Shown piece after piece: positions 1-21,343 of a DNA stretch of 34,836 bases. Within the stretch, counting starts at the first letter, position 1. Each line of letters opens with the position of its first letter. The position numbers and the translations under genes were made by a program. The stretch comes from a virus (lineage: Duplodnaviria > Heunggongvirae > Uroviricota > Caudoviricetes), in IMG/VR virus record IMGVR_UViG_3300014204_000008, positions 1-34,836 of that record. One strand, written 5' to 3'. Below the pieces are notes generated by a model. It did not search any database. It was not told the DNA's origin and saw only the letters and a list, made by a program, of their open reading frames with translations.

Positions 1-92
1 CCACCTCCAATACATTCAACGCTAACCTCAGTCACCCACATTGGACAGACCCATGTATTGCTTCCAGGAGTTGTAAATATTTCGTATGCCAT
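1..92 (-). CDS. Partial CDS (runs off left end), glycine-rich-domain virion/adhesin protein
   Basis: Not in ORF track. ATG at 92-90 reads MAYEIFTTPGSNTWVCPMWVTEVSVECIGG..., similar to the TSSGSFTWTCPAGVTSVDVECWGGGG segment of the 3299..5992 protein; starts just after the stop at 94. Confidence 0.75.
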   Translation of the reverse strand, partial: MAYEIFTTPGSNTWVCPMWVTEVSVECIGG

Positions 93-93
93 A

Positions 94-3000
94 TTAATTC
101 GTTCCCTTGTACTTAATCCTGAATCCTGTAGCCAATTTCTTCATTTTAATTGTACTGATGGCTTGAATTGGAAATGATGGTGAAGGAGATGATGAAGAAG
201 AAGATGATGGTGAGTATGAAGGTGAATTAGATGATGAAGGTGATTGTGATGGAGAATTTGACGAAGATGGTGATAGTGATGAGCTTGGAGAAAGAGATGG
301 ACTGTTTGAAGAAGATGGAGATAGAGACGGCGAGTTCGATGAGCTTACTGATGAACTGTTCGAAGATGAGTTGGACGGCGAGTTACTAGAGCTTGGAGAT
401 AAGGAAGGACTGTTGGAAGGACTGTTTGATGGTGAGTTACTAGAACTTGGAGAAAGAGATGATGAATTCGAAGACGAGGTACTAGATGACTGGCTAGAAC
501 TTGGAGAAATGGATGGGGAATTAGATGAAGATGGCGATTGGCTAGAGCTTTCCGAACTTGATCTACTTGGCGATTCACTTGAACTTGGTGACTGTGATGG
601 TGATTCTGAAGGAGATACGCTTGGTGATTGGCTAGAGCTTGGTGATAAAGAAGGACTGTTTGAAGGGCTATTTGAAGGGCTATTTGATGGAGATACGGAA
701 GACGATGGAGACTGAGATGGTGAGTTCGACGGGCTATTCGATGGACTATTAGAAGAAGATGGAGATAGAGACGGACTGTTTGATGATGATATTGATGACG
801 ATTCACTAGAGCTTGGTGATAGTGATGACGATGCAGAAGATGATGTTGATGACGATTCACTAGAGCTTGGTGAATAGGAAGGACTATTGGAAGGACTATT
901 TGAAGGTGAATTTGAAGACGATGGAGACTGAGAAGGTGAATTAGAAGATGAGTTGGAAGGGCTATTCGAACTTGATGGACTTACAGACGGTGAATTCGAA
1001 GACGAAGCACTAGGAGAATTGCTAGAACTTGGAGATAAAGATGGAGAATTTGAAGATGAGTTACTTGACGATTGACTCGAACTTGGAGAATAGGAAGGTG
1101 AATTTGAAGAAGAAGCGCTCGGAGAATTGCTAGAACTTGGAGATAAGGAAGGACTATTCGACGGGCTGTTTGAAGGTGAATTTGAAGATGATGGAGATAA
1201 CGAAGGGCTATTTGAACTTGAAGGTGAAAGTGAAGGACTTTCTGAGTTTGATGGCTGGACGTTATAAAAGGTTGATGGAGAAGATTGGTTATTATATTCC
1301 GTCGTTATCCAAGCCTGACTGAACTGAGAAGGAACTTTATGAATACGTACCTCATCCATTTCTCCCCAGAAGTTCGCTCCCGTTGGTGCCGTTGCACCTA
1401 TTACAACGTCTGCTCCGAGAAGAACTGGATTTGCATTTGAAGCTGGTGTCGCGGTATTTGCTGTTGTTGCTCTTAAGACACCATTCACATACATCCGTGA
1501 ATCTGTTTTATTGTATACCCAATCAATTTTATAGAACGTTGTAGGGCTTCCTGGAGCATAGGTACCTCCAGCTCCACCATTTAAATATGATCTATATCCA
1601 CCGTTCTGGTTCAAAGCGAATGTACTTGCCTTACCAATAAAAGCATCATATCCAGATCTTCCATGGACGATATAATCAATATATAAATTCGTTGTGTCTG
1701 AGAAATAAACATACACATGAATATCATGACCATTTGGTTCCAAGACATACGGTGAATTCATTCTCTTATCAGCGGCTCCACTTGCAATCTTACTTAAGTT
1801 TCCAGATGACAAAGTTACTCCAGTCGTTTCATCCTTAATTAAGAATGTTCCTGCAACAACAGATGTATTGTCTTGGTAGCCATAAATCGTACAGAATACA
1901 CTTCCATAGTTCGTATTTGTTAAAACGTAATCAACGAGCGTGCCACCCGGTGTATCAATTCCCATTTGCCCTCTTCTATATGTCGTCCAATTGTCTCCAG
2001 TTGATGCACCAGCGATGCTTTCTGCCTGATAGTTCGTCGTTGTCCAGTTTGTTTTATAACTCTTAATCCATAATGAATACGCCAAGCCATTAGCAAAATC
2101 ATTGATGTTTCCTAGACTGATCTGATCGTCTACTCCATCAAATGCATATCCTTTTCCGAGAACAGCATCAACCAATGAAGCACCTGTAACCGTTCCATTG
2201 AAAAGATTCGGAGAACTGTCATTGGCATTTGTTTGAAAGTGACCGACGTATTTATAATCTGACCCCCAGACATTTCTTGATCCATAGGTATCCGCTGCTG
2301 CATAGTCGTTTGCATCAGGATCTCCAAAATAGACATAAACAACCGTATCAGTTGATGATGAAACGGATGGAAGAAGCGTGTAAACTTCACCTGTCTTAGT
2401 TGTGGTATTGCAAGAGACGACCTCACGAGCGCATTCTGTAGAGCCATCAGAAGTCGTTATTCTTATATCTCCTCCACCATTTTTAACATGATCCCAGAAT
2501 TCATTTCCGAGTAATGATAGATCTATGTAGAGAGGATAGTTCGTGAGATTTCCTGCAACCTTTGTATGATCAATTGTAAGAGTTACAAAGTTAGGAAACG
2601 GAATCATCGGACTCGTAGAAGGCGAGTTTGATGGAGAGTTTGATGGACTGTTACTAGGTGAATTTGATGAGGACGGCGATCGTGATGGTGAATTTGAAGA
2701 TGAAGGTGATCTACTAGGACTACTCGAAGGTGAGGAAGACGCAGATGAGGATGGTGATAATGATGATGAAGGAGACCCTGCCGTTCCATATACATAAAAA
2801 CAAACATCATACGGTTGCGCGACAAAGGAAGGTGTTGTCTCAGCACTGGCTACACACATGTTTCCAGCGTGAAGTCCTGTTCCGCTATTTGATCCAACAT
2901 AAATACAGTTGCTTGCATCTCCTCCATTATATACAAGAACTATCGCATATGCCGTTCCTGATGACATCGCATATTGCTGACTACCTGAAAATGAAAACTC

Positions 3001-3294
3001 TACTAACGATAGTGATGTACCGATTGTAGATGCATCAATTGCATCAGATATGGCTAATGCTGGAACTGTAGCAGCAGCAGTAGAACCTAATGTTCCATCA
3101 GTAGCGTATAATTTTACATATACATTACCTGTTGGAGATCCATTTCTTCTTATATAAAATTTTGCACTTGTAAGAAATGCATTTATAGATGCACTAAAAC
3201 ACTGTCCAATGAATAATCTGGTTGAACCAGCATTAGAATTCCAATAGTATCCTGATGTATAATTACTTTCTGAAAATGAATCTATAACAGCCAT
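94..3294 (-). CDS. Large virion/adhesin-like protein: N-terminal beta domain, short Ser/Pro linker, DUF2341-like and LamG/concanavalin-like domains, long Ser/Pro stalk, basic C-terminal tail
   Basis: 1066-aa ORF. TIDHTKVAGNLTNYPLYIDLS...GGDIRITTSDG resembles DUF2341; FDGVDDQI...SLWIK...MYVNG...WGEMDEVRI resembles LamG-like jelly rolls; roughly 360 aa of SPSxSPSSS repeats near the C-terminus. Confidence 0.8.
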   Translation of the reverse strand: MAVIDSFSESNYTSGYYWNSNAGSTRLFIGQCFSASINAFLTSAKFYIRRNGSPTGNVYVKLYATDGTLGSTAAATVPALAISDAIDASTIGTSLSLVEFSFSGSQQYAMSSGTAYAIVLVYNGGDASNCIYVGSNSGTGLHAGNMCVASAETTPSFVAQPYDVCFYVYGTAGSPSSSLSPSSSASSSPSSSPSRSPSSSNSPSRSPSSSNSPSNSPSNSPSNSPSTSPMIPFPNFVTLTIDHTKVAGNLTNYPLYIDLSLLGNEFWDHVKNGGGDIRITTSDGSTECAREVVSCNTTTKTGEVYTLLPSVSSSTDTVVYVYFGDPDANDYAAADTYGSRNVWGSDYKYVGHFQTNANDSSPNLFNGTVTGASLVDAVLGKGYAFDGVDDQISLGNINDFANGLAYSLWIKSYKTNWTTTNYQAESIAGASTGDNWTTYRRGQMGIDTPGGTLVDYVLTNTNYGSVFCTIYGYQDNTSVVAGTFLIKDETTGVTLSSGNLSKIASGAADKRMNSPYVLEPNGHDIHVYVYFSDTTNLYIDYIVHGRSGYDAFIGKASTFALNQNGGYRSYLNGGAGGTYAPGSPTTFYKIDWVYNKTDSRMYVNGVLRATTANTATPASNANPVLLGADVVIGATAPTGANFWGEMDEVRIHKVPSQFSQAWITTEYNNQSSPSTFYNVQPSNSESPSLSPSSSNSPSLSPSSSNSPSNSPSNSPSLSPSSSNSPSASSSNSPSYSPSSSQSSSNSSSNSPSLSPSSSNSPSASSSNSPSVSPSSSNSPSNSSSNSPSQSPSSSNSPSNSPSNSPSYSPSSSESSSTSSSASSSLSPSSSESSSISSSNSPSLSPSSSNSPSNSPSNSPSQSPSSSVSPSNSPSNSPSNSPSLSPSSSQSPSVSPSESPSQSPSSSESPSRSSSESSSQSPSSSNSPSISPSSSQSSSTSSSNSSSLSPSSSNSPSNSPSNSPSLSPSSSNSPSNSSSNSSSVSSSNSPSLSPSSSNSPSLSPSSSLSPSSSNSPSQSPSSSNSPSYSPSSSSSSSPSPSFPIQAISTIKMKKLATGFRIKYKGTN
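168..1257 (-). repeat. Imperfect coding tandem repeat encoding Ser/Pro tract (SPS[L/N/Q/Y]SPSSSN); boundaries approximate
   Basis: Repeated GAAGGA/GATGGA/CTAGAACTTGGAGA units on the + strand; synonymous codons vary between units. Confidence 0.9.
2608..2778 (-). repeat. Short Ser/Pro linker repeat; boundaries approximate
   Basis: GSPSSSLSPSSSASSSPSSSPSRSP...SPSTSP between the N-terminal domain and the DUF2341-like domain. Confidence 0.85.
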
Positions 3295-3298
3295 AGTA

Positions 3299-5992
3299 TT
3301 ATTCGCAACGATACCTTTTAATTCTCATCTTGCTCGCCGTTCGTTTCATGAGAAGATGGAAGATTGCTGGTTGTTGTGGAGATGGAGATGGAGAAGATGA
3401 AGTCGAACTTGATTGACTTTGTGAATTACTAGAACTTGGTGAAAGAGATGGTGAATTCGACGAAGAATTGGAAGAAGAAGAGCTTGGAGATTCACTAGAA
3501 GATGGTGATAATGAAGATGATGCACTAGGTGAATTACTTGAACTCGGACTGATCGAAGAAGATGCACTAGTAGATTGGCTGGAGCTTGGTGAGAGTGAAG
3601 AAGAAGGTGATGATGATGTAGACGAAGATGCTGATGGCGACCGCGAAGAAGACGGTGATAATGAAGGAGAATTTGACGGACTATTCGAAGGTGAATTACT
3701 GGAACTTGGAGAAAGAGATGATGAATTCGAAGACGAAGCACTAGGAGAATTACTAGAGCTTGGAGATAAGGAAGGACTATTTGAAGGACTGTTTGAACTT
3801 GAAGGTGAGAGAGAAGGTGATTCTGAAGCAGACCCAATATTATAACTAATGATGACACGACCTCTTAATCCAGATCCTCCACCTGTAGCGTCACATGTTG
3901 TTCCTCCTCCACCTCCAATAAGTGATCCGTTTGAACCAAAACCACTTACAGCACCATCTCCTCCATTTCCTCCTGATAGGCTTCCACCTGTTCCGCCTGT
4001 TGCTCCACTGGCATTTCCTCCATTTGCAGTAGTTCCAGCACCTCCACCACCTCCACCTGGTGCAGAAGCAGAAGTCATTTTTGCTCCATTTCCTCCAGAG
4101 TATTTTACATCACCAACACCAGCGGAAGCTTGTCCACCTGTCCCACTATTATTTCCAGCGTTACCTCCTTTTGCTAGTACGGTTGAAGTATTTATAAAAT
4201 ATGAATCGCCTCCAGCAAGAGGACCACCAGATCTTGAATAATCTCCTACTCCACCGACACCAACAACAACCGTATAGCCCGTTGAAGGAGTTACGGGAAC
4301 ATTATTTTTCTTTGAATAGGCTCCTCCACCTCCGCCATATTCGTTTTCTCCAGCATCATATCCTCTTGGTGCTCCTCCTCCACCTCCCCAACACTCAACA
4401 TCAACGCTTGTTACTCCTGCCGGGCAAGTCCATGTAAAAGATCCTGAGCTTGTATAAGAATCATGAATCGTTGGAGCTTCTGATGGAGAAACTGACGCAC
4501 TTGTAGATGGTGAACTAGATGACGATGGCGATATAGACGGACTGTTTGAAGGACTATTGCTAGGTGAATTACTAGAGCTTGGAGATAAGGAAGGAGAGTT
4601 TGAAGGGCTATTTGAAGGGCTATTTGATGGAGAGCTTGAACTACTTGGAGATAACGATGGACTGCTTGAAGGAGAATTTGACGGTGAGTTTGATGAAGAC
4701 CCAACGATACCCAAAGTAAGAGAAACGGCTATATATGCAGAGTTATCTACAGCATTATCAAGAACAACATTAATCGTCGCTGCTCCAGCCGATGCTTGTA
4801 CAGCATGATTAGATAGAAATGCTATTTCCGCAGCACCATCCGTTTCACTATTATCAAGTAGCCCATCAAGAAATGCACTCGTCCCTGCGGATATATCTAC
4901 CGTAGATGAAAGAGTAAAAAGGCTAACAACAGGATATGCGTTAGCTGTTGTCGTCGTAACTGTTGTCGCTTTTGGCGAACTGAATGAACCACCTTCACTA
5001 TTATACGCATCAATTGGAGTTGTCTGATCTACATTTTCGTACTGTGCTGCTATTAAATAGATCTTTGTTTGAGATGCTCCATATGTTGCAACGATATCAT
5101 ATGCAGATCCTTGTGATGGATTTACAAGACGATAGCAACACATTCGCATGTTCGCCTGTACGAGAACACTTGTAACAAGCGTCATTCCAACACTATTATA
5201 TGTAACACTTGAAGGCGTATCAGGACCACCACCACTCCTATACTGAGCAACCCAAACAAGCAAAGCAGCATTTGTTACGGAATCACAGTTTAAAGAAACT
5301 GTAGCCGTTGCGCTTGATGCTTGGTACTTCTTAACTTGCTTAACAAGAGCTGGATATGCTGATGTTCCTGATAAGGCTGGTTTGATTGTAACGGCAATAG
5401 CTCCTAAATTTGCATTGCTTCCAGTAGCCGAACAGGTCATCGTATTAGCTCCAGCTGGTGAAATAACCGCACCAGTATCAACGATGGAATGTCCACCAGC
5501 ATCTGTTGTATATCGAACCGTATCTCCAGTCGATGATGTGTACGTTCTTGATCCTTGGTCGTCCTTTAGGAATGTAACCATCCAACAGTTATCTACACTT
5601 GATGTAATATCAGTAGAGATACCCGTACCGGCTGAAACCGTTGACGTATCACTTCCATCAAACTGACTATTTTGTAATGCTCCAGTATAATAAAATCCAC
5701 TTGCACGAATGTTTGTGCTACCAGATGTCGTAACAACAACATTGTTTGCCCCTGTAGACGGTGCAAGCAGATACCAAAGTGTTAATGCTCTATCGCTAGG
5801 TACCTGAACACCAGTAACTTTCGTCATTGGAGTCCCAGCGTATGTCACTCCAGTAATGAGAGATGTCGCACCAGCTTGATCATGACAAGCGACGAGCAAA
5901 AGACGTTCTGATCCTGCCGTTGTAACTGAAAAAGTCAACGATGTGCCAGTCGCTGATTGTCCGTATGTCCCTCCACCATATGCAAGTGCCAT
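3299..5992 (-). CDS. Large virion/adhesin-like protein: two tandem beta-rich domains, Ser/Pro linker, glycine-rich domain, Ser/Pro stalk, basic C-terminal tail
   Basis: ORF track gives 3299..6019 with a GTG start; ATG at 5992 (MALAYGG) after an AT-rich leader fits the other starts better. Contains TCPAGVTSVDVECWGGGGG...GGGGGAYSK glycine-rich domain and two SP tracts. Confidence 0.8.
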   Translation of the reverse strand: MALAYGGGTYGQSATGTSLTFSVTTAGSERLLLVACHDQAGATSLITGVTYAGTPMTKVTGVQVPSDRALTLWYLLAPSTGANNVVVTTSGSTNIRASGFYYTGALQNSQFDGSDTSTVSAGTGISTDITSSVDNCWMVTFLKDDQGSRTYTSSTGDTVRYTTDAGGHSIVDTGAVISPAGANTMTCSATGSNANLGAIAVTIKPALSGTSAYPALVKQVKKYQASSATATVSLNCDSVTNAALLVWVAQYRSGGGPDTPSSVTYNSVGMTLVTSVLVQANMRMCCYRLVNPSQGSAYDIVATYGASQTKIYLIAAQYENVDQTTPIDAYNSEGGSFSSPKATTVTTTTANAYPVVSLFTLSSTVDISAGTSAFLDGLLDNSETDGAAEIAFLSNHAVQASAGAATINVVLDNAVDNSAYIAVSLTLGIVGSSSNSPSNSPSSSPSLSPSSSSSPSNSPSNSPSNSPSLSPSSSNSPSNSPSNSPSISPSSSSSPSTSASVSPSEAPTIHDSYTSSGSFTWTCPAGVTSVDVECWGGGGGAPRGYDAGENEYGGGGGAYSKKNNVPVTPSTGYTVVVGVGGVGDYSRSGGPLAGGDSYFINTSTVLAKGGNAGNNSGTGGQASAGVGDVKYSGGNGAKMTSASAPGGGGGGAGTTANGGNASGATGGTGGSLSGGNGGDGAVSGFGSNGSLIGGGGGTTCDATGGGSGLRGRVIISYNIGSASESPSLSPSSSNSPSNSPSLSPSSSNSPSASSSNSSSLSPSSSNSPSNSPSNSPSLSPSSSRSPSASSSTSSSPSSSLSPSSSQSTSASSSISPSSSNSPSASSSLSPSSSESPSSSSSNSSSNSPSLSPSSSNSQSQSSSTSSSPSPSPQQPAIFHLLMKRTASKMRIKRYRCE
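3368..3828 (-). repeat. Ser/Pro coding repeat tract; boundaries approximate
   Basis: SESPSLSPSSSNSPSNSP... up to SPSPSP. Confidence 0.88.
4460..4700 (-). repeat. Ser/Pro coding linker repeat; boundaries approximate
   Basis: SSSNSPSNSPSSSPSLSPSSS...SASVSPSEAP. Confidence 0.85.
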
Positions 5993-6114
5993 ATTAGATT
6001 CGGACAACAAAAGAAACACTAATAAGTAAAAATACTAGTGTTCTTATGATCTTTTGTTTTATGTTAAGTAATAGGCACATTTTTACGTTTGTTTTTGTTT
6101 TTTTTCTACCTTCC

Positions 6115-6132
6115 TACCTATCTATTATACCA
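6115..6132 (-). promoter_or_regulatory. Extended -10 promoter-like motif TGGTATAATAGATAGGTA
   Basis: Exact TGnTATAAT; matches the motif at 16949..16966 at 17 of 18 positions; upstream of the 3299..5992 gene. Confidence 0.6.
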
Positions 6133-6135
6133 TTT

Positions 6136-6177
6136 TTATTTGATCTTTTCTTCTAGGTTTGTCCATCCAGGTATTTG
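6136..6177 (-). pseudogene. Displaced duplicate of the glycosyltransferase C-terminus (QIPGWTNLEEKIK*)
   Basis: Directly after the HNH stop; aligns with the end of 6651..8411 (KIEGWTDLREKIK*). Confidence 0.75.
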
Positions 6178-6178
6178 A

Positions 6179-6646
6179 TTATTTAATAATTTCTCCTAAG
6201 AATTCTCCAAATAATTCTCTAGCAACCGCTATGTATACTGAAGAAGCTTCTTCAGGTGTATCGTATAGACCTAAGTGCATTTCCTTATCATGATAGTGAA
6301 TCCTGGCTCTCCATTTATTCCTAAGTGAATGCCAAGATACGCCTCTAAATCCACTTTTATTATCATGTTCCATTGATTTATTCCATTGATTTTGAGACGG
6401 TGTCACATATCTAAGATTACAACGTCTATTATCAAACCTATTTCTATTGATATGATCTATCTCAAAACCTTCTTTTTTTGGTAGAATAAAATGATGGAGT
6501 TTCTTTGAATGATTCTTTCCATTTATTCTTTCAGTATGCGTCCTTGGATATTCATTTCCTTTTTGACCAGAAGTGCTCCATGTATATTCATCTAATAAAT
6601 CCATGTATTCTGGATCTAAGATTATTTTTTCATGTACACTTTTCAT
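6179..6646 (-). CDS. HNH homing endonuclease with C-terminal AP2-like DNA-binding domain
   Basis: EIDHINRNRFDNRRCNLR (HNH core) followed by SGFRGVSWH...KWRARI...HLGLYDTPEEA (AP2-like). Confidence 0.9.
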   Translation of the reverse strand: MKSVHEKIILDPEYMDLLDEYTWSTSGQKGNEYPRTHTERINGKNHSKKLHHFILPKKEGFEIDHINRNRFDNRRCNLRYVTPSQNQWNKSMEHDNKSGFRGVSWHSLRNKWRARIHYHDKEMHLGLYDTPEEASSVYIAVARELFGEFLGEIIK

Positions 6647-6650
6647 AGAT

Positions 6651-8411
6651 TTATTTTATTTTTTCACGCAAATCAGTCCAACCTTCTATTTTGTCTACTG
6701 TCGTTTCTTTCCAATTTCTACAACTTCTTAGGCTTTTGAATTCTTCAGGTTTCCACTTTGAACGTGATAAGTTAGAAGAATGCCGTACATCTATATTTGG
6801 AATCTTAGCTTCCCATGTTGAAGATTTATCATCACTGAATCCTCCAAGCCTTAGGCTCCTCGTGCCACATTCGTAGCCACGGGTGAAATGCCTTCCATCA
6901 TCTTCTTCTTCCATTATGTTTACTCTATTTTCATATTCTGGAAGGAGCTTTGATAGATAGGCACACATCTGAGAAAGGCTCTTATGATCATATTTCACAC
7001 TGAATCCATCTTCTTGTCTTACTCTCCATAGATTCGAGTTGTAATAGAAGGCATTCGGATCAGGAGGTAAGAAGTCTGTGTAACCTTCTCCGTAAAGCAC
7101 ATCATGTTCTAAGAAATAGACGATCTCAACACCCATCTTTTCTAACTCTTGAAGCCCTCGAAGGATCTGTCTATGCATCGTGAGTTTACCTCTTTCCAAC
7201 GACATGACGATATTTGTACCAAAACCTTCTAATGGCTTGAGTGATACAGATACGAGTGGTCTATCTCCAATGACTTTTAGGATCTGATTTCGTACCGTAG
7301 TGGCAAGCGGGTCTGGAAGTTCGTTGTCTGTGTAGTAGAGACAGCCGATGAGATGGCTTGATTCAGAATAAGAGAAGCTATTCTTGTCCGTAGAGACCTC
7401 ACCAGAGGCAACAGGAGCCTCTAGGAGAGGTTTTTCTGGCGAAGTGGTATCTTTAGACCTTTGATAGAATTCTTCACCTTTTTGATGCGCCTCATTCATA
7501 TCTTCTTCACTCCAACCTCTTACAGGCGCGAACTTCTCTACAAGCCAAGAAAGTGGACGTATCTGCTTGTTCCATTTGTTATTGAAGAAGAAATCCTTTG
7601 CCATCTTCTTTGCATTCTCTACTTTTTGGAAGTCCTGCTGATAAGGGAACCCGAAATCTTGGCCTTGGGTTCTAAAGCAATGTCCATACCACGTCTTCTT
7701 GTTTATGATTACTCTTCCTCCTGATAACCACGCTTTACACGCTACTTCGATGCCTTGTGACCCCCATGATCCGAATGCTTCATCACAAATCTTATACTCC
7801 CAATACTTATCTCTTGTAATCATGAATGCAGAACCCTGAAGGCTCATTGATTCTACGTAGTCACCTATCTGTTTTTTCTTGTAATCATTGAAATATTGGA
7901 AGTGTGGAGTTGAATCGAAGCAATATGAGGTAGATGTTGGATTTGTCTTTGGAATCCATACAACCTCTTTATCTGTTTTTTCTCCACACTGTGTACATGA
8001 ACCACTTGGACCCTGGTACCTTCTATGTCCATTCTTACAAATCCAGTTGAAGACATGAAGATTACGCATTGCTGGAGCCATCACAACATCATCTCCAAGC
8101 TCTTTAAATGCTTCAAGCATCTTAATGTCAAAACCATCATCAAAGGCACAATGGGCATCAACTTTCATGAGGTACTTAGCACGAGAGAGGGCAGCCGCTT
8201 GATTCGTTGCAGCTCTTTGTCCTCTCGACTCCATGTTTGTAATGATAGTGATGCTTGGATCTGTTGGTATTTCAGGTATATCCGTTTCAAAGCCATCAAG
8301 TACGATGATGATTTCTGTGTTCCCTTGAATATGGCAAAGAAGATCCTCTACAGTTTTTCCAAGCCATTCTTCATTCTTCGCTGGAATAAGTATTGATAGG
8401 TCGTAATTCAT
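6651..8411 (-). CDS. Two-domain GT-A glycosyltransferase; N-terminal domain with polypeptide GalNAc-transferase-like motifs
   Basis: LSILIPAKNE; GQRAATNQAA; KVDAHC (DxH); WGSQGIEVACKAWLSGG...WYGHCFR. Second domain CLYYTDN...VYFLEHDVLY after a low-complexity linker. Confidence 0.85.
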   Translation of the reverse strand: MNYDLSILIPAKNEEWLGKTVEDLLCHIQGNTEIIIVLDGFETDIPEIPTDPSITIITNMESRGQRAATNQAAALSRAKYLMKVDAHCAFDDGFDIKMLEAFKELGDDVVMAPAMRNLHVFNWICKNGHRRYQGPSGSCTQCGEKTDKEVVWIPKTNPTSTSYCFDSTPHFQYFNDYKKKQIGDYVESMSLQGSAFMITRDKYWEYKICDEAFGSWGSQGIEVACKAWLSGGRVIINKKTWYGHCFRTQGQDFGFPYQQDFQKVENAKKMAKDFFFNNKWNKQIRPLSWLVEKFAPVRGWSEEDMNEAHQKGEEFYQRSKDTTSPEKPLLEAPVASGEVSTDKNSFSYSESSHLIGCLYYTDNELPDPLATTVRNQILKVIGDRPLVSVSLKPLEGFGTNIVMSLERGKLTMHRQILRGLQELEKMGVEIVYFLEHDVLYGEGYTDFLPPDPNAFYYNSNLWRVRQEDGFSVKYDHKSLSQMCAYLSKLLPEYENRVNIMEEEDDGRHFTRGYECGTRSLRLGGFSDDKSSTWEAKIPNIDVRHSSNLSRSKWKPEEFKSLRSCRNWKETTVDKIEGWTDLREKIK

Positions 8412-8420
8412 ATATTATTT

Positions 8421-9032
8421 TTATTGCTTGATATAAAACCATGTAGGGCATTTATCTTTCTTCCATACGAACCATGGATAGATATCATATGCCTCACAAT
8501 ATGCTGGTATCAATTCACGAACGCCATATCCAACGTGTCTCCTATCGAATAGATCGTGGCCTGAAACGATTCCGCCTTTCTTCACTTTAGGAACCCATGC
8601 TCTTAGATCATCGGCCAAAAATAGTAGATCATGATTCCCGTCGATAAAGATAGCATCAAGACTCTCATCTTCGAACTGTTTTGCAGCATCTACACTCCAT
8701 TCATTGATAATACTGAATCCATACTTCTCAGCACGATCATAGGCTTCTTTACGTGCGTCAATTTCCAAATCTGTCTTATGGAAGTCTTTGTAACCTCCAT
8801 ATGTAAGGAATTTATCAACGGCTGTTAGATCAAGAAATGGAATCAACTTCATCAATGTAGAAGCATACTGTCCTCTATACGTTCCGATCTCCACCATCGT
8901 CGTCACACCAATATCTTTAAGAAACTCTGGAAATGCATCATGACGAGAAGCTGGTATATTGATGCGTTCTCTCTTTGTGACATCGAGGCTGTACTTATCT
9001 CGTAGGTATTCAATTGGGTTTATGCCGTTCAT
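8421..9032 (-). CDS. Class I SAM-dependent methyltransferase (Methyltransf_24-like)
   Basis: MVEIGTYRGQYA motif I; DAIFIDGNH; VKKGGIVSGHD. Confidence 0.88.
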   Translation of the reverse strand: MNGINPIEYLRDKYSLDVTKRERINIPASRHDAFPEFLKDIGVTTMVEIGTYRGQYASTLMKLIPFLDLTAVDKFLTYGGYKDFHKTDLEIDARKEAYDRAEKYGFSIINEWSVDAAKQFEDESLDAIFIDGNHDLLFLADDLRAWVPKVKKGGIVSGHDLFDRRHVGYGVRELIPAYCEAYDIYPWFVWKKDKCPTWFYIKQ

Positions 9033-9562
9033 ATATTTCGACCTAGAAACTCTTCTAGCTGTTGAAGCGAATTATTTTTACTTCCATAAATTCTATGGAA
9101 TTCTTCATGGGATTCTTTTGACAATGTAATCCCATTATCTATAGCGAAACGAAGTTCTATATGAGATGAGAAATTTTTGATATGATGAGGATGAAGCTTC
9201 CCTCCCTTCACTCCTGTTTTCTGACATATCCAATTATCTCTAGCGAATACAGCTTCGCGCCATAAGCGATATTGGACTGAATCTCTTGCTTTTTCATTTT
9301 CAGTACATCTTCCACCCTTCCACTGGAGATTTTTAGATCCCTTATGAATATCACTTAGAATCTTTTTCACGTGTTCTGGGCACTTATGACCTTTTAAAGC
9401 CTTACTTAACTTCTTTTTAGTATCTTCTTTCACTTTATAACCTAGATGAGCACGTCGAATATTTTCTCTACCTTCTAAAGACATTGGCTTATGCTTTTTC
9501 CCTTTCATTTTTATACTCATCATCCTCTTCCATTCTTCAGAATGTTTTCTACCTTTCTTCAT
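9029..9562 (-). CDS. HNH endonuclease with NUMOD3-like basic N-terminal repeats
   Basis: GRKHSEEWKRMMS / HLGYKVKEDTKKKLSKALKG repeats; WREAVFARDNWICQ...LHPHHIK...RFAIDNGITLSKESH. Confidence 0.88.
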   Translation of the reverse strand: MKKGRKHSEEWKRMMSIKMKGKKHKPMSLEGRENIRRAHLGYKVKEDTKKKLSKALKGHKCPEHVKKILSDIHKGSKNLQWKGGRCTENEKARDSVQYRLWREAVFARDNWICQKTGVKGGKLHPHHIKNFSSHIELRFAIDNGITLSKESHEEFHRIYGSKNNSLQQLEEFLGRNI

Positions 9563-9564
9563 AT

Positions 9565-10431
9565 TTATGTTTTCAGTCTACTAATAAGTTGATTTTTCCA
9601 GTCTACTGGATAATTAGGGAATGGGGCAAATCGTTCGAGTTGCGAAATGAAGAAGTCTTGACGTTCGACTGCCCAGTTGTTCCAGGAATACCTATAACTT
9701 CTGCGTATCTCATCCTTTGATAGATGGTACATTCGTCCATATTTAGATCCCTTGTGTAGATGTGCGTACCACGTCTTCTTATTAACAACGACTTCTCCAC
9801 CCATAAAATACGTTTGGAAGCATACTTCTTCAGCCTCAGAACCCCATCCCTGATAAGCAATATCCATGAAACTACATTTCTTGAACCAATCGCGGCCCAT
9901 GAAAAAAAAACTTCCTTGACATGTAAGAATTTTATCAACCTCTATTTCCATTCGCTCCAAAGTACGTCTATCATTTCGAAAGCCATGCATCTCCTTACTT
10001 TCGATTAAACCCTTCCATAAGAAGTGTTCATAATCAATAGGTGGACGAGCATCCGATTGTTGCTGAAGGCACCAATTCTCAGCATCTAGACGATTGCGCC
10101 TAGGAACCTGAACTCGATTTTCGATATGATCACGAACAAGTACCTCATCGAAGCCTGGCGCGACCATAACGTGACCATCCATCCAACAAACATATTTCCC
10201 AGTAGCGTGTTCATTCACGACCTTATTAATTCCATGGCGTTTCTTCGAATAGTCTGTTTTTTCAAGTCTTACATAATGAACCCGTGGATCGTCCACGAGT
10301 TCACTTTCTAATGGTTCATACCCATCAAGTATCGGAAAAACCTCTATTTCTCCTTTTGCTTTTTCAAGAACATCCAGTATTGTTTTCTGTAAGAAGATCT
10401 CATTCTTGCTTGGTATTGCGATGGAGACCAT
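9565..10431 (-). CDS. GT-A glycosyltransferase, paralog of the N-terminal domain of 6651..8411
   Basis: VSIAIPSKNE; CWMDGH (DxH); WGSEAEEVCFQTYFMGGEVVVNKKTWYAHLHK shares NKKTWY with the other GT. Confidence 0.85.
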   Translation of the reverse strand: MVSIAIPSKNEIFLQKTILDVLEKAKGEIEVFPILDGYEPLESELVDDPRVHYVRLEKTDYSKKRHGINKVVNEHATGKYVCWMDGHVMVAPGFDEVLVRDHIENRVQVPRRNRLDAENWCLQQQSDARPPIDYEHFLWKGLIESKEMHGFRNDRRTLERMEIEVDKILTCQGSFFFMGRDWFKKCSFMDIAYQGWGSEAEEVCFQTYFMGGEVVVNKKTWYAHLHKGSKYGRMYHLSKDEIRRSYRYSWNNWAVERQDFFISQLERFAPFPNYPVDWKNQLISRLKT

Positions 10432-10949: not shown

Positions 10950-11930
10950 TTAGAGTTTTTCTCCTTTTAAGTTGAATAGATCTACTCCTTCTAGATCCTT
11001 GGAGGAAATCGTCCCAGTCTTTGCGATCAAATAACCTTCAGGAGATTTTTTAGATCGCACCATAAATGTACTATTGATAAGACTCGGATCATCTCTTCGC
11101 ATCTTCCCAGCGGCGAAAAGGAGGAATTCACCAGCATGATCACCATCTATCCTTTGATAGAGCATCCCTTCTTCGAATTTCATAGTATTTATTGGTTCTT
11201 CAATTAACTCTTCTACTGTCCATATGTAACAAGTAGAAAAGATGTAATCTTTAGCAAGTCTCTTTGTCCCTGGTTCATTATAATGGTCGAAGATGCCGAA
11301 TGTTCCATCGTCATACTTCTTATAGATCATGAATGCGTGATTTGGATTTGATTCAGATCTTGGATAGATGCCATTCACAGGTTGAGGCCAAGCAAATCCA
11401 CATGTCCAAATAGGAGAATACTTTAGATGTTCACGTATCTTTTCTGCCGTAGGTTCAAAATATTCACGACGAAAAATGAACTTCTTGTATATTTCTTTCC
11501 CTTTCTCGATGAGCGTAACTGGAATTTCTATGTAGAAGTCATCCCAGGATGAAGCCTCATTTGGATAAACGCTTTGTTCAAGAAGCCCAAAATACTTACG
11601 TACAGCTTCAGCGACAGCGAAGAATGTATTACCATCTTTCGATGTTTGGCTCATCTTTGCTGTGTAGCGATCAGAGAAATTCACCCTATAACCATACTTA
11701 CAGAAAATAATAGTCTCCAATACATTCAAAAGCGAGAAACTTACACAGGCCATCGAATCAAAATTCTTTCCATACTGTCTTTCAAAGATAGGAAGGTGAT
11801 CAGAATAGTCACCATCTTCATTGATAACGATTTTCTCTAAGCCAGAAATACCTCCAGCTCTCCATTCGAGAGGCGGAGGATTCTCAATAAGAAGACCAAA
11901 GTTCTTATTTTCAGTAAAGCTCGTATCCAT
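10950..11930 (-). CDS. Papain-fold cysteine peptidase, putative lysin
   Basis: Q...SMACVSFS (catalytic Cys), PNHAF (His), IFDHY; adjacent to holin-like genes. Confidence 0.7.
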   Translation of the reverse strand: MDTSFTENKNFGLLIENPPPLEWRAGGISGLEKIVINEDGDYSDHLPIFERQYGKNFDSMACVSFSLLNVLETIIFCKYGYRVNFSDRYTAKMSQTSKDGNTFFAVAEAVRKYFGLLEQSVYPNEASSWDDFYIEIPVTLIEKGKEIYKKFIFRREYFEPTAEKIREHLKYSPIWTCGFAWPQPVNGIYPRSESNPNHAFMIYKKYDDGTFGIFDHYNEPGTKRLAKDYIFSTCYIWTVEELIEEPINTMKFEEGMLYQRIDGDHAGEFLLFAAGKMRRDDPSLINSTFMVRSKKSPEGYLIAKTGTISSKDLEGVDLFNLKGEKL

Positions 11931-12017: not shown

Positions 12018-12311
12018 CTATCGACTATTAATGAATTCTCTAATCTGTGCAGAAAGTGTTGCAATGAGCGAGTTCGTATTTTCCATTTTTACCGTTAATG
12101 CTGTCAAAGCGATAGTTGATTGATTAATTGATTCTGCCTGGGTTTCAATTTGACCATCCTGTTTTGCATTTATACGTTCACACTGGATAGACCTCTCATT
12201 TATCTGAACAATGAATACGATTCCGGTTACAAGAAGACCGACGACCGAAACAACAAGTCCTAGCGGTATAAGTGTCTCTTTAGATATAAGTGTTTGTCGT
12301 TCTCGATCCAT
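12018..12311 (-). CDS. Single-TM coiled-coil membrane protein of the lysis cassette
   Basis: TM LIPLGLVVSVVGLLVTGIVFIV followed by a heptad-rich segment. Confidence 0.65.
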   Translation of the reverse strand: MDRERQTLISKETLIPLGLVVSVVGLLVTGIVFIVQINERSIQCERINAKQDGQIETQAESINQSTIALTALTVKMENTNSLIATLSAQIREFINSR

Positions 12312-12323
12312 AGTACATCTTTA

Positions 12324-12626
12324 TTACGTCTTCTTCTGAGCCTTGTACATGATGTGAGAACCTCCCCAAATAGCTATAAAGGCTAAAATAGACTCTATAA
12401 CACCTTGAAGCGATTCTGGCGTCATTGCACCAGAGGACCAGCCAAGTAACAACACTGAAAGTGCAGAGAGAACTCCAGAAAATGCTCGTATCTTTACAAC
12501 CATTCCTTCCTTCAGCCAAGGAACTTTATTAGAGAACTTTGCTATCTGCGTATAAGCGAATACTGCTGGAGCGGAGATAATGACGACACCGAGCATCGTA
12601 AGTATTTGATCAAAATTGATGTACAT
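12324..12626 (-). CDS. Holin-like protein (about 3 TM segments)
   Basis: 100 aa, three hydrophobic segments, basic C-terminus YKAQKKT, next to the peptidase. Confidence 0.65.
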   Translation of the reverse strand: MYINFDQILTMLGVVIISAPAVFAYTQIAKFSNKVPWLKEGMVVKIRAFSGVLSALSVLLLGWSSGAMTPESLQGVIESILAFIAIWGGSHIMYKAQKKT

Positions 12627-18461: not shown

Positions 18462-19345
18462 CTGATTGTTTAGACCAGCTAATGACCCGTAGCTTTTTCG
18501 GAATTGGGATCAAGGTCCCAATAGAGGGGTGATTTTTCGTCCCACCCCTCTGTAGGACTATACCGTCTCAGTGAGAAACGATACTATGAACTATGAACTA
18601 AGATCTGCGATTCGACTATCGAATCTTCTTGCTATCTTCAGACACATGGAAATGAATGCTTCTTCAGATAGAACGAGTTTGGCTTTATTGCACAGAGCAC
18701 AACAGGGTCGAATATTCTCTATAGAGTATGGACCTTCTGAATCTATTCTATCAAGTCCGATTCCTTGTATTTCATCGCCACAATAGTAACATGGTTTGTT
18801 CCAATATTCATTGAATTCTTCAAATGAAAGGAGGAATGGGATGTCTCTAACATTAGCAGAACTCTTATACGTAGAATACCTTTGCCACGGCTTATTCTTG
18901 TTTCCTCTACAACGAGACCTATGGCATTCCTTACATTCATAGGATAGGTTCAATAACCTTCCTGTATGGACTCCATACTCTGTTAATGGCTTTACAACGC
19001 CACAGCCATGACATCTTCGCGTTTGATCTATAACATTTGTCGTATCCGGTTTCTTCGTGTCTGGATGCTTCTTGTGCCAATAAGCAGATTTTGCTTCTTT
19101 GCATAGATCGCATCTACAACCTTTGTCATAAGACCATTTCGTCCCATGTTTTCTTATTGGGCAGTTTTTTCTAAAGTCCGATTTCGCCTTCTTACAAAGA
19201 TCACATCTACAACCTTTGTCATAAGAAGATGTCTTTCCATGAGTGATTCGATCTTCCGAATCACAGATCTTAGTTTTGCTGAAATGAGAGGGGATATTTT
19301 TCATATCCCCAATCATCTCATACTTTCTCTAACAGTACAAGCACC
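18462..19345 (-). other. Structured RNA-like element enclosing the HNH ORF (partial group I-like features)
   Basis: 19-bp long-range inverted repeat (19257..19275 with 18596..18614), several hairpins, S-like GGTATAGTCC at 18555..18564 and end motif AACAATCAG. No clear GACTA P7 partner. Confidence 0.4.
18591..19316 (-). CDS. HNH/His-Me finger endonuclease with N-terminal Zn-finger repeats
   Basis: Two HGxxxSYDKGCRCDLCK repeats; CHGCGVVKP...CKEC; CYYCG...GLDRIDS...YSIENIRPCCALCNKAK. Confidence 0.85.
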   Translation of the reverse strand: MIGDMKNIPSHFSKTKICDSEDRITHGKTSSYDKGCRCDLCKKAKSDFRKNCPIRKHGTKWSYDKGCRCDLCKEAKSAYWHKKHPDTKKPDTTNVIDQTRRCHGCGVVKPLTEYGVHTGRLLNLSYECKECHRSRCRGNKNKPWQRYSTYKSSANVRDIPFLLSFEEFNEYWNKPCYYCGDEIQGIGLDRIDSEGPYSIENIRPCCALCNKAKLVLSEEAFISMCLKIARRFDSRIADLSS

Positions 19346-19351
19346 GAGGTG

Positions 19352-21343
19352 TTATGAGGTGATACCCTTCAAAAGTGCACATCTTGAGGCCTGCATACGC
19401 TGCAAACCACACTCTGTAAGGTATTCATCGACCACACCGTCCTGACCTGGAGTCTCGACATTTGTGCGGAGGACTGTATCTCGACCAGGAATGTAACGAT
19501 AGACGAAACAATTCATGTCGAGCAAGAAGGCATAACCAGCATAAGCACCCTTGAGAACTTCGCTATTGTTAACGATGTTCACGTTACCGAATGCTGTCTG
19601 CCACTGAGAGATCTTCACACCGTACGTCGACTGATCCATGCGTGTCTGGAGCTGACCACGAGCAATTTCATTGATCGCAGAAAGAACAAGACCTCCGCAC
19701 ATGAGGATCTTTGTCGAATCACCGTAGGTGAATCCTTCACGAAGGAAGGTTTCCATGTCAGGAGCAGTCAATGGACCACCCTGGTTCTGAACATAGGAGT
19801 TACCAGCTTCAATGAATTCGAGTACACCACCGGTCGCACGACGTGGATGACCCTGCGTACCTGTCGTATCGAGCTTCTTCTCACCAAGCATGAAGGCTTT
19901 TTCGATATCGAGCACGTGTTCTACTCCAATCTTTGCACGTTGATATGGCAACATTATTGTTACCGTTCAATTGAACGGAAGCGATCATTTCTGTCGCTTT
20001 CTCTATGTCTCCATAGAGATCAGACTATATCATCCCATTTCTGGGTCTAGCGTTTAGTCGTTGAGGATTCTGGTTTAAAACCAGTCTTTCCTGCTGATTG
20101 ACTCTATCCATTGGATTTTTAGTATTTCTACTACCAATGGCCTAACGAGTTATTCCAGCATATGGCTAGATTTTCTTAGATTTTATCTAAGGGACTATTC
20201 ACTTAATCCTTGCCCCCGTATGGGTTCAACGCGGCTTCCGTCCCAGTCACAGCGAGTGTGTGGCGGAAAATTTGGGAGAAGTTCGAATTTCGTGTCGTCT
20301 GCGTCATGTTGGCGTTACGAACACCAGCATTTTCTTCGTTGACGTTACCGATGATGAACAAGTCATCTCCAGCAACACCAGCAGCAGCGGCAGTCGTACC
20401 GAAAGCACGAGCAGCCGTGATGGATGTTGCGCCAGCGATCGACGCGACAAGCATCACTTCACCAGTTCGGGCGTTCTTGATCTGATCTCCAACTGTGAAG
20501 ATGTAACCAGAACTTGAACCGGCACCATACACAGTGATCGTAACAGCGTTGTCAGTAGAGTTATAAGCTGCACCGACTTTTGCATAACGACCACCATGGT
20601 AATCTTCTCTATTATTGTTAACTACATGTCTCCATGTAGATCGGACTATATCATCCCTCATATGCCTATTTAGAGGGGCTAACGTCTAGTCTCTGAGGAT
20701 TCTGGTCTAAGACCAGTCTTTCCTGCTGATTGTCCATAATATCTTCATTTTCAGGGTTCGTTGACCATTCACATGATCAAATCCTAGAAGATACTTATCT
20801 GGAGTTTCCAGCATATGGTTAGCTTTTACTTGGTCAGAAGTTTAACCAAGAGAATTCTGGGTTATTCAAGATCGGGGCCTTTCGAATCCCTGCGCCCTTC
20901 CATGAGTTTCCTTCCGAGTCCTTTTTACCTGGAGTCGTAAGGAGCGTCACGAATGGATGCTTGTTGGTTTCAAGAAGCATGATCTTATCGAACACTTCTA
21001 CTGGCAAACGACCTTCTGTGCTCAACGTTGCTGTGGAGCGAGCGGCGTTACTGCCAGCGATTGCTACAGTTCCCTGCGAATGAGAGGGTTCTGTGTAATT
21101 ACTGTGTTAACTACATGTCTCCATATAGATCGGACTATATCATACTGTTTCCAGTGGGAGCGTATAGTCTCTGAGGATTCTGGTTTAAAACCAGTCTTTC
21201 CTGCTGATTGACTCTATAACTATTATTTTCAGGGGTCGTTGAAAGCTTACGCAATCAAAATCCTAAATAGTTCTTAACAAGTTATTCCAGCATATGGCTC
21301 CCTTTTATATCCGCACTACGAAGCAATACGGATAACTAGGCAT
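19352..21343 (-). CDS. Major capsid protein (DUF5309/SU10-like, HK97-type), 4 exons: 21343-21328, 21099-20844, 20608-20206, 19951-19352; spliced 424 aa
   Basis: Exons join in frame (16+256+403+600=1275 nt), giving MPSYPYYTEPSHSQG...NPEFSWL/EDYHGG...NPYGGKD/LPYQRAK...LLKGITS. Motifs NFSQIFRHT, EKAFMLGE, TGGVLEFI and QTAFGNVNIV are capsid-like, and the gene follows the scaffold. The exon 1/2 junction is less certain than the others. Confidence 0.85.
19952..20205 (-). mobile_element. Group I intron 3 of the capsid gene (254 nt, no ORF, IB-like core)
   Basis: P ATGCTGGAA, Q AATCAGCAGG, R TCAACGACTA, S GATATAGTC. The 5' exon ends in U (GAT) pairing with GTCC; terminal G in AACAATAATG; removal restores GKD/LPYQ. 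Confidence 0.9.
20609..20843 (-). mobile_element. Group I intron 2 of the capsid gene (235 nt, no ORF)
   Basis: P ATGCTGGAAA, Q AATCAGCAGG, R TCAGAGACTA, S GATATAGTCC. P1 CTTGGTT/GACCAAG with U-G; P10 AGAAG/CTTCT; terminal G; restores SWL/EDY. Confidence 0.92.
21100..21327 (-). mobile_element. Group I intron 1 of the capsid gene (228 nt, no ORF; apparently non-G terminus)
   Basis: P ATGCTGGAA, Q AATCAGCAGG, R TCAGAGACTA, S ATATAGTCC. P1 TATCCGT/GCGGATA; P10 ATTAC/GTAGT. Boundary can slide by up to 2 nt because of an AT repeat. Confidence 0.82.

Follow-up and report, generated by a model that had tools for sequence, protein, structure and literature searches.

A phage gene cassette with GT27-like enzymes predicted to O-glycosylate the phage's own serine-tract fibres

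Why would a tailed phage encode glycosyltransferases (GTs) and a methyltransferase ahead of fibre genes whose products carry long serine-rich tracts? The question is raised by positions 94 to 10,431 of a 34,836-nucleotide stretch of phage DNA (IMG/VR record IMGVR_UViG_3300014204_000008), hereafter called the window, which represents the first 34.8 kb of a complete phage record of 98,836 bp with 123-bp direct terminal repeats. An initial annotation had seen here a candidate mucin-type O-glycosylation system, i.e., enzymes resembling polypeptide N-acetylgalactosaminyltransferases (ppGalNAc-Ts) next to mucin-like virion stalks. Our analysis suggests, with a probability of roughly 0.7, that the cassette is a phage-encoded system for the cytoplasmic O-glycosylation of the phage's own fibres, which carry long tracts of the form (Ser-X)n. 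Every long gene of the window lies on the minus strand, and in the direction of transcription (from 10,431 to 94) the order is P0004, HNH/NUMOD3, P0005, P0003, HNH-AP2, P0002, P0001. This bears out the described arrangement of methyltransferase and GTs ahead of two giant serine-rich proteins and adds to it two HNH genes and a third tract protein. The enzymes and their domains are the following (aa, amino acids):

9565..10431, minus strand: P0004, small GT27-like GT with GT-A fold, 288 aa, first gene of the cassette (PF00535, E 5.2e-11)
8421..9032, minus strand: P0005, S-adenosylmethionine-dependent methyltransferase (Methyltransf_24), 203 aa (PF13578, E 4.8e-13)
6651..8411, minus strand: P0003, large two-domain GT, 586 aa (PF00535)
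7446..8411, minus strand: N-terminal GT27-like GT-A domain of P0003, aa 1-322 (PDB phmmer, family profile, and fold)
6654..7358, minus strand: C-terminal domain of P0003 with a nucleotide-sugar-transferase fold, aa 352-586 (predicted model and fold matches)

The sole Pfam family matched by the two GTs is PF00535 (52.6 and 43.2 bits at a gathering cut-off of 23.3), which takes in the catalytic domains of both GT27, the ppGalNAc-T family, and GT2. Among sequences of known structure, phmmer places mouse GalNAc-T1 (1xhb) first for P0003 (E 2e-6, with 16 of the 18 matches being GT27) and also for P0004 (E 2e-3), and a 27-sequence family profile finds GT27 in the PDB at E 9.8e-11. The N-domain of P0003 and P0004 are paralogues of each other (E 3e-22). 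The DxH, WGS[Q/E], and WY[G/A]H motifs that the initial annotation had pointed out are all present where it had placed them: P0003 has DAH at residues 85-87, WGSQGIEV followed after 7 aa by GG, WYGH, and GHCFR, plus a Cys-rich beta insert at approximately aa 120-165, and P0004 has DGH at residues 85-87, WGSEAEEV followed after 7 aa by GG, WYAH, and AHLHKG. The family alignments (22 and 27 homologues) show little or no variation at the DxH, WG, E, and H positions, and D85, H87, and the His that would serve as third metal ligand are invariant in both GT families. Residue for residue, DAH, WG..E, GG, and GH.FR align with DAH, WGGENLE, GG, and GHVFR of GalNAc-T1 (1xhb). In the WGGENxE motif, both GTs match at the W, the G, and the final E; the Glu in the middle persists in the P0004 family (WGQEAEE) but is Gln in P0003, and neither GT has the Asn.

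The predicted folds point in the same direction. AlphaFold models of P0004 and P0003 have mean predicted local distance difference test (pLDDT) scores of 89.8 and 87.9, and for P0004 the top 50 chains of a Foldseek search of the PDB are all GT27 ppGalNAc-Ts (best E 1.8e-15), as are the top 30 among 550,129 Swiss-Prot models. In an exhaustive structural alignment against 48,161 representative chains, P0004 reaches Z scores of 24.1 and 23.1 to GT27 (best other GT-A family, 18.7) and the N-domain of P0003 26.4 (root-mean-square deviation [rmsd] 2.4 Å over 264 residues) and 24.5 (next family, 18.4). GT27 thus scores 5-8 Z units higher than the next-best fold families (K4CP, SpsA, WrtF, and others at 18.7 or less), so that the outcome named by the initial annotation as a refutation, GTs with models like those of ordinary GT2 enzymes, is not what is seen. 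The proposed likeness to ppGalNAc-Ts therefore stands insofar as GT27 is the best match by both sequence and fold. Membership in GT27 is a different matter: we call the enzymes GT27-like on the strength of sequence and model and do not file them as GT27 members because they have no lectin domain and no membrane anchor, keep the WGGEN motif only in part, and share 18-21% identity with GT27. The missing anchor is the type II membrane anchor of GT27, and the setting here is prokaryotic or phage.

In the model of P0003, a disordered linker (aa 323-351) joins the N-domain to a second, GT-A-like domain (aa 352-586), which resembles IspD (Z 12.2) and the GT6 enzyme BoGT6a (Z 11.1), a fold assignment based on the full-length model and an Atlas model. 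It carries an E-H-D motif in which E435 and D437 are invariant and H436 nearly so. Domains of this type are found by themselves (217-290 aa) in viruses and fused to GT2 and Methyltransf_24 domains in bacteria, and the P0003 C-domain is probably a chain-extending transferase. The methyltransferase P0005 had no phmmer match in the PDB at E <= 0.1. Its domain (PF13578) is fused to P0003-type GTs in several homologues, a link that places the methyltransferase in one pathway with them, and P0005 is probably the methylase of the glycan.

The presumed acceptors are three fibre-type proteins, which we refer to as candidate clients:

3299..6019, minus strand: P0002, candidate client 1, 906 aa, tail-fibre or minor-tail-like (PF21722, E 3e-13; PHROG tail families 863, 553, and 416)
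4439..4723, minus strand: (Ser-X)n tract 1 of P0002, aa 433-527
3359..3841, minus strand: (Ser-X)n tract 2 of P0002, aa 727-887
94..3294, minus strand: P0001, candidate client 2, 1066 aa (PF13385, E 2.9e-8; PF10102, E 2.9e-4, short of the Pfam cut-off)
2587..2796, minus strand: (Ser-X)n tract 1 of P0001, aa 167-236
145..1263, minus strand: (Ser-X)n tract 2 of P0001, aa 678-1050
1..92, minus strand: candidate client 3, first 30 codons in the terminal-repeat copy (ATG at window position 92 within the 123-bp repeat)
98805..97645 of the genome: candidate client 3, full gene, 386 aa (from a genome scan and translation)

P0002 has a glycine-rich domain (aa 523-726) between its two tracts and a short basic C-terminal tail; its real start may be an in-frame ATG at 5992. 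P0001 consists of an N-terminal domain, a first tract, a module of DUF2341 and a LamG/ConA-like lectin domain, a second tract of 373 residues, and again a basic C-terminal tail, while the third candidate client, located beyond P0001 on the other side of the genome terminus, combines a glycine-rich domain with a (Ser-X)n tract of ca. 145 aa and a basic C-terminal tail. The initial annotation had described SPSxSPSSS repeats over hundreds of residues. The long serine tracts are real, but they are better described as a strict (Ser-X)n array than by this repeat: in aa 678-1050 of P0001, Ser occupies 96% of one alternating register over 373 residues with zero slips, and X is P (33%), S (23%), or N (19%), followed by Leu, Gln, and Glu. 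All six Ser codons are used in this tract and Tandem Repeats Finder reports only short, weak DNA repeats, so the pattern is kept at the protein level and does not reflect recent slippage. ppGalNAc-Ts favour Pro at positions -1, +1, and +3 of the acceptor, and an S-P-S-x-S-P register supplies such prolines.

As an observation of its own, the three tract proteins share a basic tail of ca. 25 residues after "...SPSP" that reads roughly I-x3-MKK-x-A-x-KM-x-IK (window 94-170 and 3299-3375; genome 97645-97720). Tract proteins of other phages end in short conserved tails or straight in "SPSPSFP". The C-terminal tails may be attachment or assembly signals.

If the enzymes serve the tracts, the two should travel together in other phages. 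An alignment of the P0004 family used as query against IMG/VR matched 219 viral contigs, of which 80 loci (37-59% identity) were kept, unlike single-protein queries (P0004; P0001 aa 237-680), which found no relatives. The small GT is present in all 80 loci, the methyltransferase in 66 of them (located between the two GTs), and the C-domain of the large GT in 56. The order is kept, with the small GT followed by the methyltransferase, sometimes extra genes, the large GT, and then a large open reading frame (ORF) on the same strand with a tract that is approximately 56% Ser and 20% Pro. Where a locus has the whole cassette and 2.5 kb or more of sequence past it (37 loci), a tract protein is present in 34 cases and is the very next ORF in 25 (median gap, 132 bp); nearly all tract-less viral loci end just after the enzyme genes. 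Grouped by what remains after masking of the tracts, the 91 tract proteins form 38 unrelated clusters, the largest of which has LamG domains, meaning that the enzymes travel with the tract and not with one particular fibre family.

As background, 80 further IMG/VR loci were drawn with a DNA pattern for SPSxSPSxSPS, whose matches are mostly chance or out-of-frame; this is a conservative background biased to Ser/Pro-rich DNA and not a reverse search. Alternate-Ser tracts of at least 100 aa occur in 59 of the 80 cassette loci and in 4 of the 80 background loci (Fisher p 1.3e-20). Three of these four (L097, L113, and L123) turned out to carry the cassette themselves and the fourth is a giant-virus contig, leaving this contig as the only one with a long tract among 77 cassette-free background loci. 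From the side of the fibres, the LamG/DUF2341 module of P0001 has its nearest homologues at 50% identity over 99% of its length, and there is no alternate-Ser tract in any of its 92 homologues. Relatives of either GT or of the methyltransferase are missing from the 10-kb surroundings of the tract-less LamG fibres P0248 and P0249, and the whole 98.8-kb record that carries P0248 (L269) has no P0004-family gene. The pairing of the GTs with serine-repeat genes that the initial annotation had anticipated is thus seen in both directions, in phages as well as on the bacterial chromosomes described below, and two tract-less LamG phages do without the enzymes.

Two further observations were made on these viral loci. 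In at least 16 phages, the gene directly upstream of the small GT encodes a protein of 200-330 aa composed of an N-domain of ca. 110 aa and a long (Ser-X)n tail (L006, L021, L043, L044, L047, L048, L049, L054, L063, L067, L068, and others), a family that makes up another of the 38 clusters and has no matches in Pfam or PHROG. The L269 phage encodes GTs of GT4/GT1 type and a Methyltransf_23 enzyme between its capsid and the P0248 fibre, in which a beta-strand-like "SxK..I" repeat forms the spacer in place of a Ser tract. This phage may use a different virion-glycosylation kit.

Relatives of the cassette also exist in cells. P0004 relatives were found in only 55 loci among 185,579 species genomes, all of them metagenome-assembled genomes (MAGs), and about half of these loci are labelled as Patescibacteria lineages, i.e., members of the Candidate Phyla Radiation (CPR; Collier-, Woese-, Pacei-, Zambryski-, Saccharibacteria, and others). 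Several are phage contigs binned into MAGs, and others are clearly chromosomal, lying on contigs that span 135-955 kb and also encode RecG, RNR, TatAC, and the like. The cellular cassette is longer, 7-12 kb, with extra GT and methyltransferase paralogues and sugar-nucleotide enzymes. All five CPR loci centred on the large GT (L084, L086, L087, L267, and L268), four of them on contigs of 135-955 kb and four showing cellular genes, have an ORF of 828-2752 aa that is mostly (Ser-X)n and starts at most 2.5 kb downstream. In all five, the gene caller had put small antisense genes in its place (e.g., over the ORFs at L084 14554-18711, L086 12343-14826, L267 13536-21791, and L268 12083-16249), which implies that the giant (Ser-X)n proteins of CPR bacteria are largely missing from protein databases. 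As the cassette is common to phages and CPR chromosomes, CPR bacteria are probably both the hosts of these phages and the source of the genes, as far as sequence can tell.

TatA/TatC genes lie directly beside the cassette in every cellular locus that we examined (L084, L086, L087, L267, L268, and the P0171 contig), with TatA alone where the locus is cut (L267 and the P0171 contig). The glycosylated Ser-repeat proteins may be exported in a folded or modified state by the Tat pathway.

Back in the window, the cassette sits inside the late virion operon, after the terminase, portal, capsid, and lysis genes and ahead of the fibre genes, with lysis-type genes directly ahead of the small GT. In the direction of transcription, the surrounding genes and the two that interleave the cassette are:

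25721-28510, minus strand: large terminase
23517-25670, minus strand: portal
about 19352-21343, minus strand: capsid gene in pieces, followed by unassigned genes
12018-12311 and 12324-12626, minus strand: two small membrane proteins
10950-11930, minus strand: 326-aa protein, ahead of the cassette region
9029..9562, minus strand: HNH/NUMOD3 homing endonuclease between the small GT and the methyltransferase (Pfam NUMOD3; PHROG HNH endonuclease families down to E 1.4e-11)
6179..6646, minus strand: HNH-AP2 homing endonuclease separating the large GT from the first fibre gene (Pfam HNH_3 and AP2; phrog_99, E 9.7e-42)

The two homing endonucleases differ from each other, interleave the cassette genes without disrupting them, and are mostly missing from related loci; they are mobile passengers outside the pathway. 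Elsewhere in the window, the 929-aa large terminase has its ATPase matches (aa 18-208) and nuclease matches (aa 626-910) separated by an insert of ca. 400 aa that matches a helicase-labelled PHROG and may be an intein or inserted domain. Matches to the major capsid protein are divided between separate ORFs (20203-20661 and 19352-19954), directly downstream of which lies an endonuclease VII/HNH ORF (18591-19316). The two GTs are the only GT2-type genes of the whole phage genome, where a search for an Epimerase (PF01370) gene found none, and megablast of 20 kb of the window gave no match among 50,697 GenBank phage records.

The reading given in the initial annotation is thus supported as far as sequence, predicted structure, and genome comparison reach, and we picture the system as follows. 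P0004 and the N-domain of P0003 would be soluble, Mn-dependent GT-A enzymes (using DxH and the additional His) with GT27 as their nearest characterised relatives, and would move sugar from the host nucleotide-sugar pool onto serine hydroxyls in the tracts of the three downstream fibre-type proteins. Probable additional steps are the attachment of another sugar by the C-domain of P0003 and O-methylation of the glycan by the Methyltransf_24 enzyme. With the cassette expressed together with the late virion genes, the outcome would be extended, densely glycosylated "bottle-brush" spacers between or after globular fibre modules (LamG lectin-like or glycine-rich). The tracts as acceptors, this division of labour, the sugar, and the physical role are what we infer from sequences and models, and the glycosylated tracts may serve as stiff, protease-resistant stalks or as a shield.

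Other readings of the locus have to be weighed against this one. The cassette could comprise auxiliary genes that remodel a host surface polymer, e.g., a wall glycopolymer, a capsule, or a host surface protein, and thereby block superinfection or aid attachment to the CPR host, with the tracts as unmodified linkers that happen to share an accessory region. Homing endonucleases do mark this region as plastic, the chromosomal CPR cassette adjoins sugar-nucleotide genes (DegT, CTP_transf_3, and an epimerase), and the literature on Patescibacteria phages tends to interpret glycan genes and genes for ConA-like lectins as auxiliary metabolic genes acting on the host surface (PMC12911398). We nevertheless consider this reading unlikely. 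All three enzymes lack membrane segments (maximum 19-residue hydropathy of the GTs 0.94-0.98, with 0.98 for P0004), and neither a flippase nor a polyprenyl-type enzyme is encoded in the cassette (6179-10431). In both sequence and fold, the GTs stand closest to polypeptide transferases and not to polysaccharide synthases. Furthermore, the cassette follows Ser tracts across the 38 unrelated scaffolds, is absent beside homologous fibres that lack them, and is located inside the late virion operon.

Alternatively, the enzymes could glycosylate other virion proteins such as the capsid or tail tube, with the tract proteins not being acceptors at all. The mycobacteriophages Che8, Corndog, and Myrna are known to glycosylate their own capsid and tail tube (Freeman et al. 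2023, Cell Host Microbe, cited in PMC12363180), and gp108 of Che8 likewise joins a GT2 domain to Methyltransf_24. However, the Che8 GTs show no specific similarity to those of the window (hhalign probability <=55%; gp110 is a GT25 enzyme). In tblastn searches of the 50,697 GenBank phage records neither GT has a homologue, P0004 not even at E <= 1, and PHROGs hold no family for either GT or for P0001. What is conserved beside the enzymes across loci is a tract protein and not a capsid or tube protein, and CPR chromosomes have the tract protein without any capsid, so that we regard this possibility as quite improbable. Finally, hypermodification of the phage's DNA by the GTs and methyltransferase to evade restriction, e.g., via glycosylated hydroxymethyl-pyrimidines, can almost be set aside even though GT-A/GT2-like enzymes that glycosylate DNA are known from phages (10.1101/2023.12.21.572611 and PMC13326640) and phrog_2675, the PHROG family nearest to the methyltransferase, is labelled "DNA methyltransferase", because the phage genome search found no thymidylate-synthase-like hydroxymethylase, the cassette sits in the late structural operon and not in a replication module, a cassette on CPR chromosomes beside giant tract proteins would make no sense for DNA modification, and the fold neighbours are polypeptide transferases.

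Several points weigh against glycosylation of the tracts by the cassette. The tracts could be plain flexible linkers or bear another modification, and their glycosylation is predicted from genes of a phage that is uncultured, as are all its relatives. The ricin-type (CBM13) lectin domain is absent, given that P0004 ends after the catalytic domain and the C-domain of P0003 is not a beta-trefoil. The WGGEN motif is changed from Glu to Gln in P0003 (WGSQGIE) and has lost its Asn in both GTs, and donor or chemistry may thus differ from GT27, going by the sequence. Three of the 37 complete viral loci have no tract at the thresholds used, two of which (L025 and L057) pass another tract filter, and the co-occurrence counts are not phylogenetically independent. 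Moreover, MAG loci centred on the small GT show a tract in only 20 of 55 cases, a figure not to be taken as a rate since such views under-sample the region past the large GT, which is often at the edge of the locus. The two homing endonucleases, lastly, indicate that the region gathers mobile genes too.

To our knowledge, phage self-glycosylation is experimentally known only from a few mycobacteriophages, with enzymes unrelated to this cassette. The cassette is not only different from those kits but also much more widespread: a single IMG/VR scan matched 219 viral contigs, and metagenomic homologues number in the thousands. If our reading is true, many environmental phages, probably those of uncultured CPR bacteria, bear mucin-like glycoprotein fibres with a bearing on adsorption, protease resistance, and particle stability, and the CPR cell surface is partly made of the same glycoprotein material. 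The polypeptide-glycosylating function of the GT27 fold would then predate or parallel its use in eukaryotes. A wider proposal, on which we see the balance as even, is that phages and CPR bacteria have in common a genuine prokaryotic equivalent of mucin-type O-glycosylation, in which soluble GT27-like enzymes act directly on hundreds of tract serines to build bottle-brush stalks on virions and cells; these would be the first polypeptide-glycosylating GT27 relatives outside eukaryotes and might represent a lineage that is sister to the eukaryotic pathway or gave rise to it. In cells, the process may be linked to export of the completed glycoprotein via Tat. As it comprises three soluble enzymes and has a simple repeat as its presumed acceptor, the system is also small enough to be potentially useful for making defined O-glycoprotein polymers.

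How does this candidate system compare to those already known? To GT27 enzymes (mouse GalNAc-T1, 8v9q/1xhb; human GalNAc-T2, 4d0z; Toxoplasma GalNAc-T3, 8uhv), the phage GTs are alike in their GT-A fold (Z about 23-26, rmsd 2.4-2.9 Å over ca. 260 residues), in the aligned DxH metal motif, WG..E "Gal/GalNAc-T" loop, and GH..FR third metal ligand, and in that their presumed acceptors are serines in Pro-rich repeats. They differ from them not only in identity (18-21%), in the partly changed WGGEN motif, and in the missing ricin-type lectin domain, but also in having neither signal anchor nor stem; the phage and CPR enzymes are predicted to be cytoplasmic, whereas GT27 enzymes reside in the Golgi. 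The phage clients would be Ser-only (Ser-X)n tracts in place of the Thr-rich mucin repeats modified by GT27, and no N-acetylgalactosamine donor is implied for the phage GTs. Much closer are the CPR loci (L084, L086/L087, L267, and L268), with a small GT, a Methyltransf_24 enzyme, and a large GT of ca. 50-56% identity in the same order and a giant (Ser-X)n ORF downstream. These cellular versions span 7-12 kb, carry extra paralogues, and adjoin TatA/TatC, whereas the phage cassette amounts to a minimal core of three genes. We found no paper on GT27-like enzymes in phages or CPR bacteria or on their pairing with (Ser-X)n proteins.

Glycosylation of virions by phage-encoded enzymes has been described for the mycobacteriophages Che8 (gp108-110), Corndog, and Myrna, and PMC12363180 names Che8 gp110 as essential. 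The phage of the window would resemble them in encoding GTs that modify its own virion proteins, a likeness drawn from its genes, and in the pairing of a GT2-type domain with Methyltransf_24, which is a separate gene between the GTs here and fused in relatives. Che8 gp108 is a fusion of PF00535 and PF13578, gp109 is weakly GT2-like, and gp110 belongs to GT25; in hhalign comparisons with the P0004 family, gp110 reaches a probability of 0.4%, gp109 of 0.2%, and gp108 of 55%, the last for a generic GT-A N-terminus only. The Che8 capsid and tail-tube proteins have no Ser-repeat tract, in contrast to the fibre-type candidate clients of the window phage with tracts hundreds of residues long.

A different parallel comes from bacterial surface proteins. 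In streptococcal serine-rich-repeat proteins and staphylococcal SD-repeat proteins, cytoplasmic GTs that are dedicated to this task and encoded next to the client attach O-glycans to the (Ser-X)n tracts. In these systems, cytoplasmic glycosylation yields a stalk that projects binding domains. The serine-rich-repeat proteins (Fap1, GspB, and PsrP, with GtfA/GtfB) and SD-repeat proteins (with SdgA/SdgB) resemble the phage locus in placing long (Ser-X)n clients beside dedicated soluble GTs (see also PMC3794999). They differ from it in that their initiating enzymes are GT4 enzymes of the GT-B fold, whereas the phage GTs are GT-A and GT27-like; no GT-B/GT4 Pfam family is matched by any of the seven proteins of 94-10431. 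The phage clients would furthermore be part of a virion and not bacterial adhesins, and X is mostly Pro, Ser, or Asn as opposed to Ala, Val, Glu, or Asp. For the client logic of the phage cassette, the bacterial serine-rich-repeat and SD-repeat adhesins offer the closest analogy. That a phage glycosylates its own particle is a known idea; it is in the initiating enzymes and the type of client that the system described here differs.

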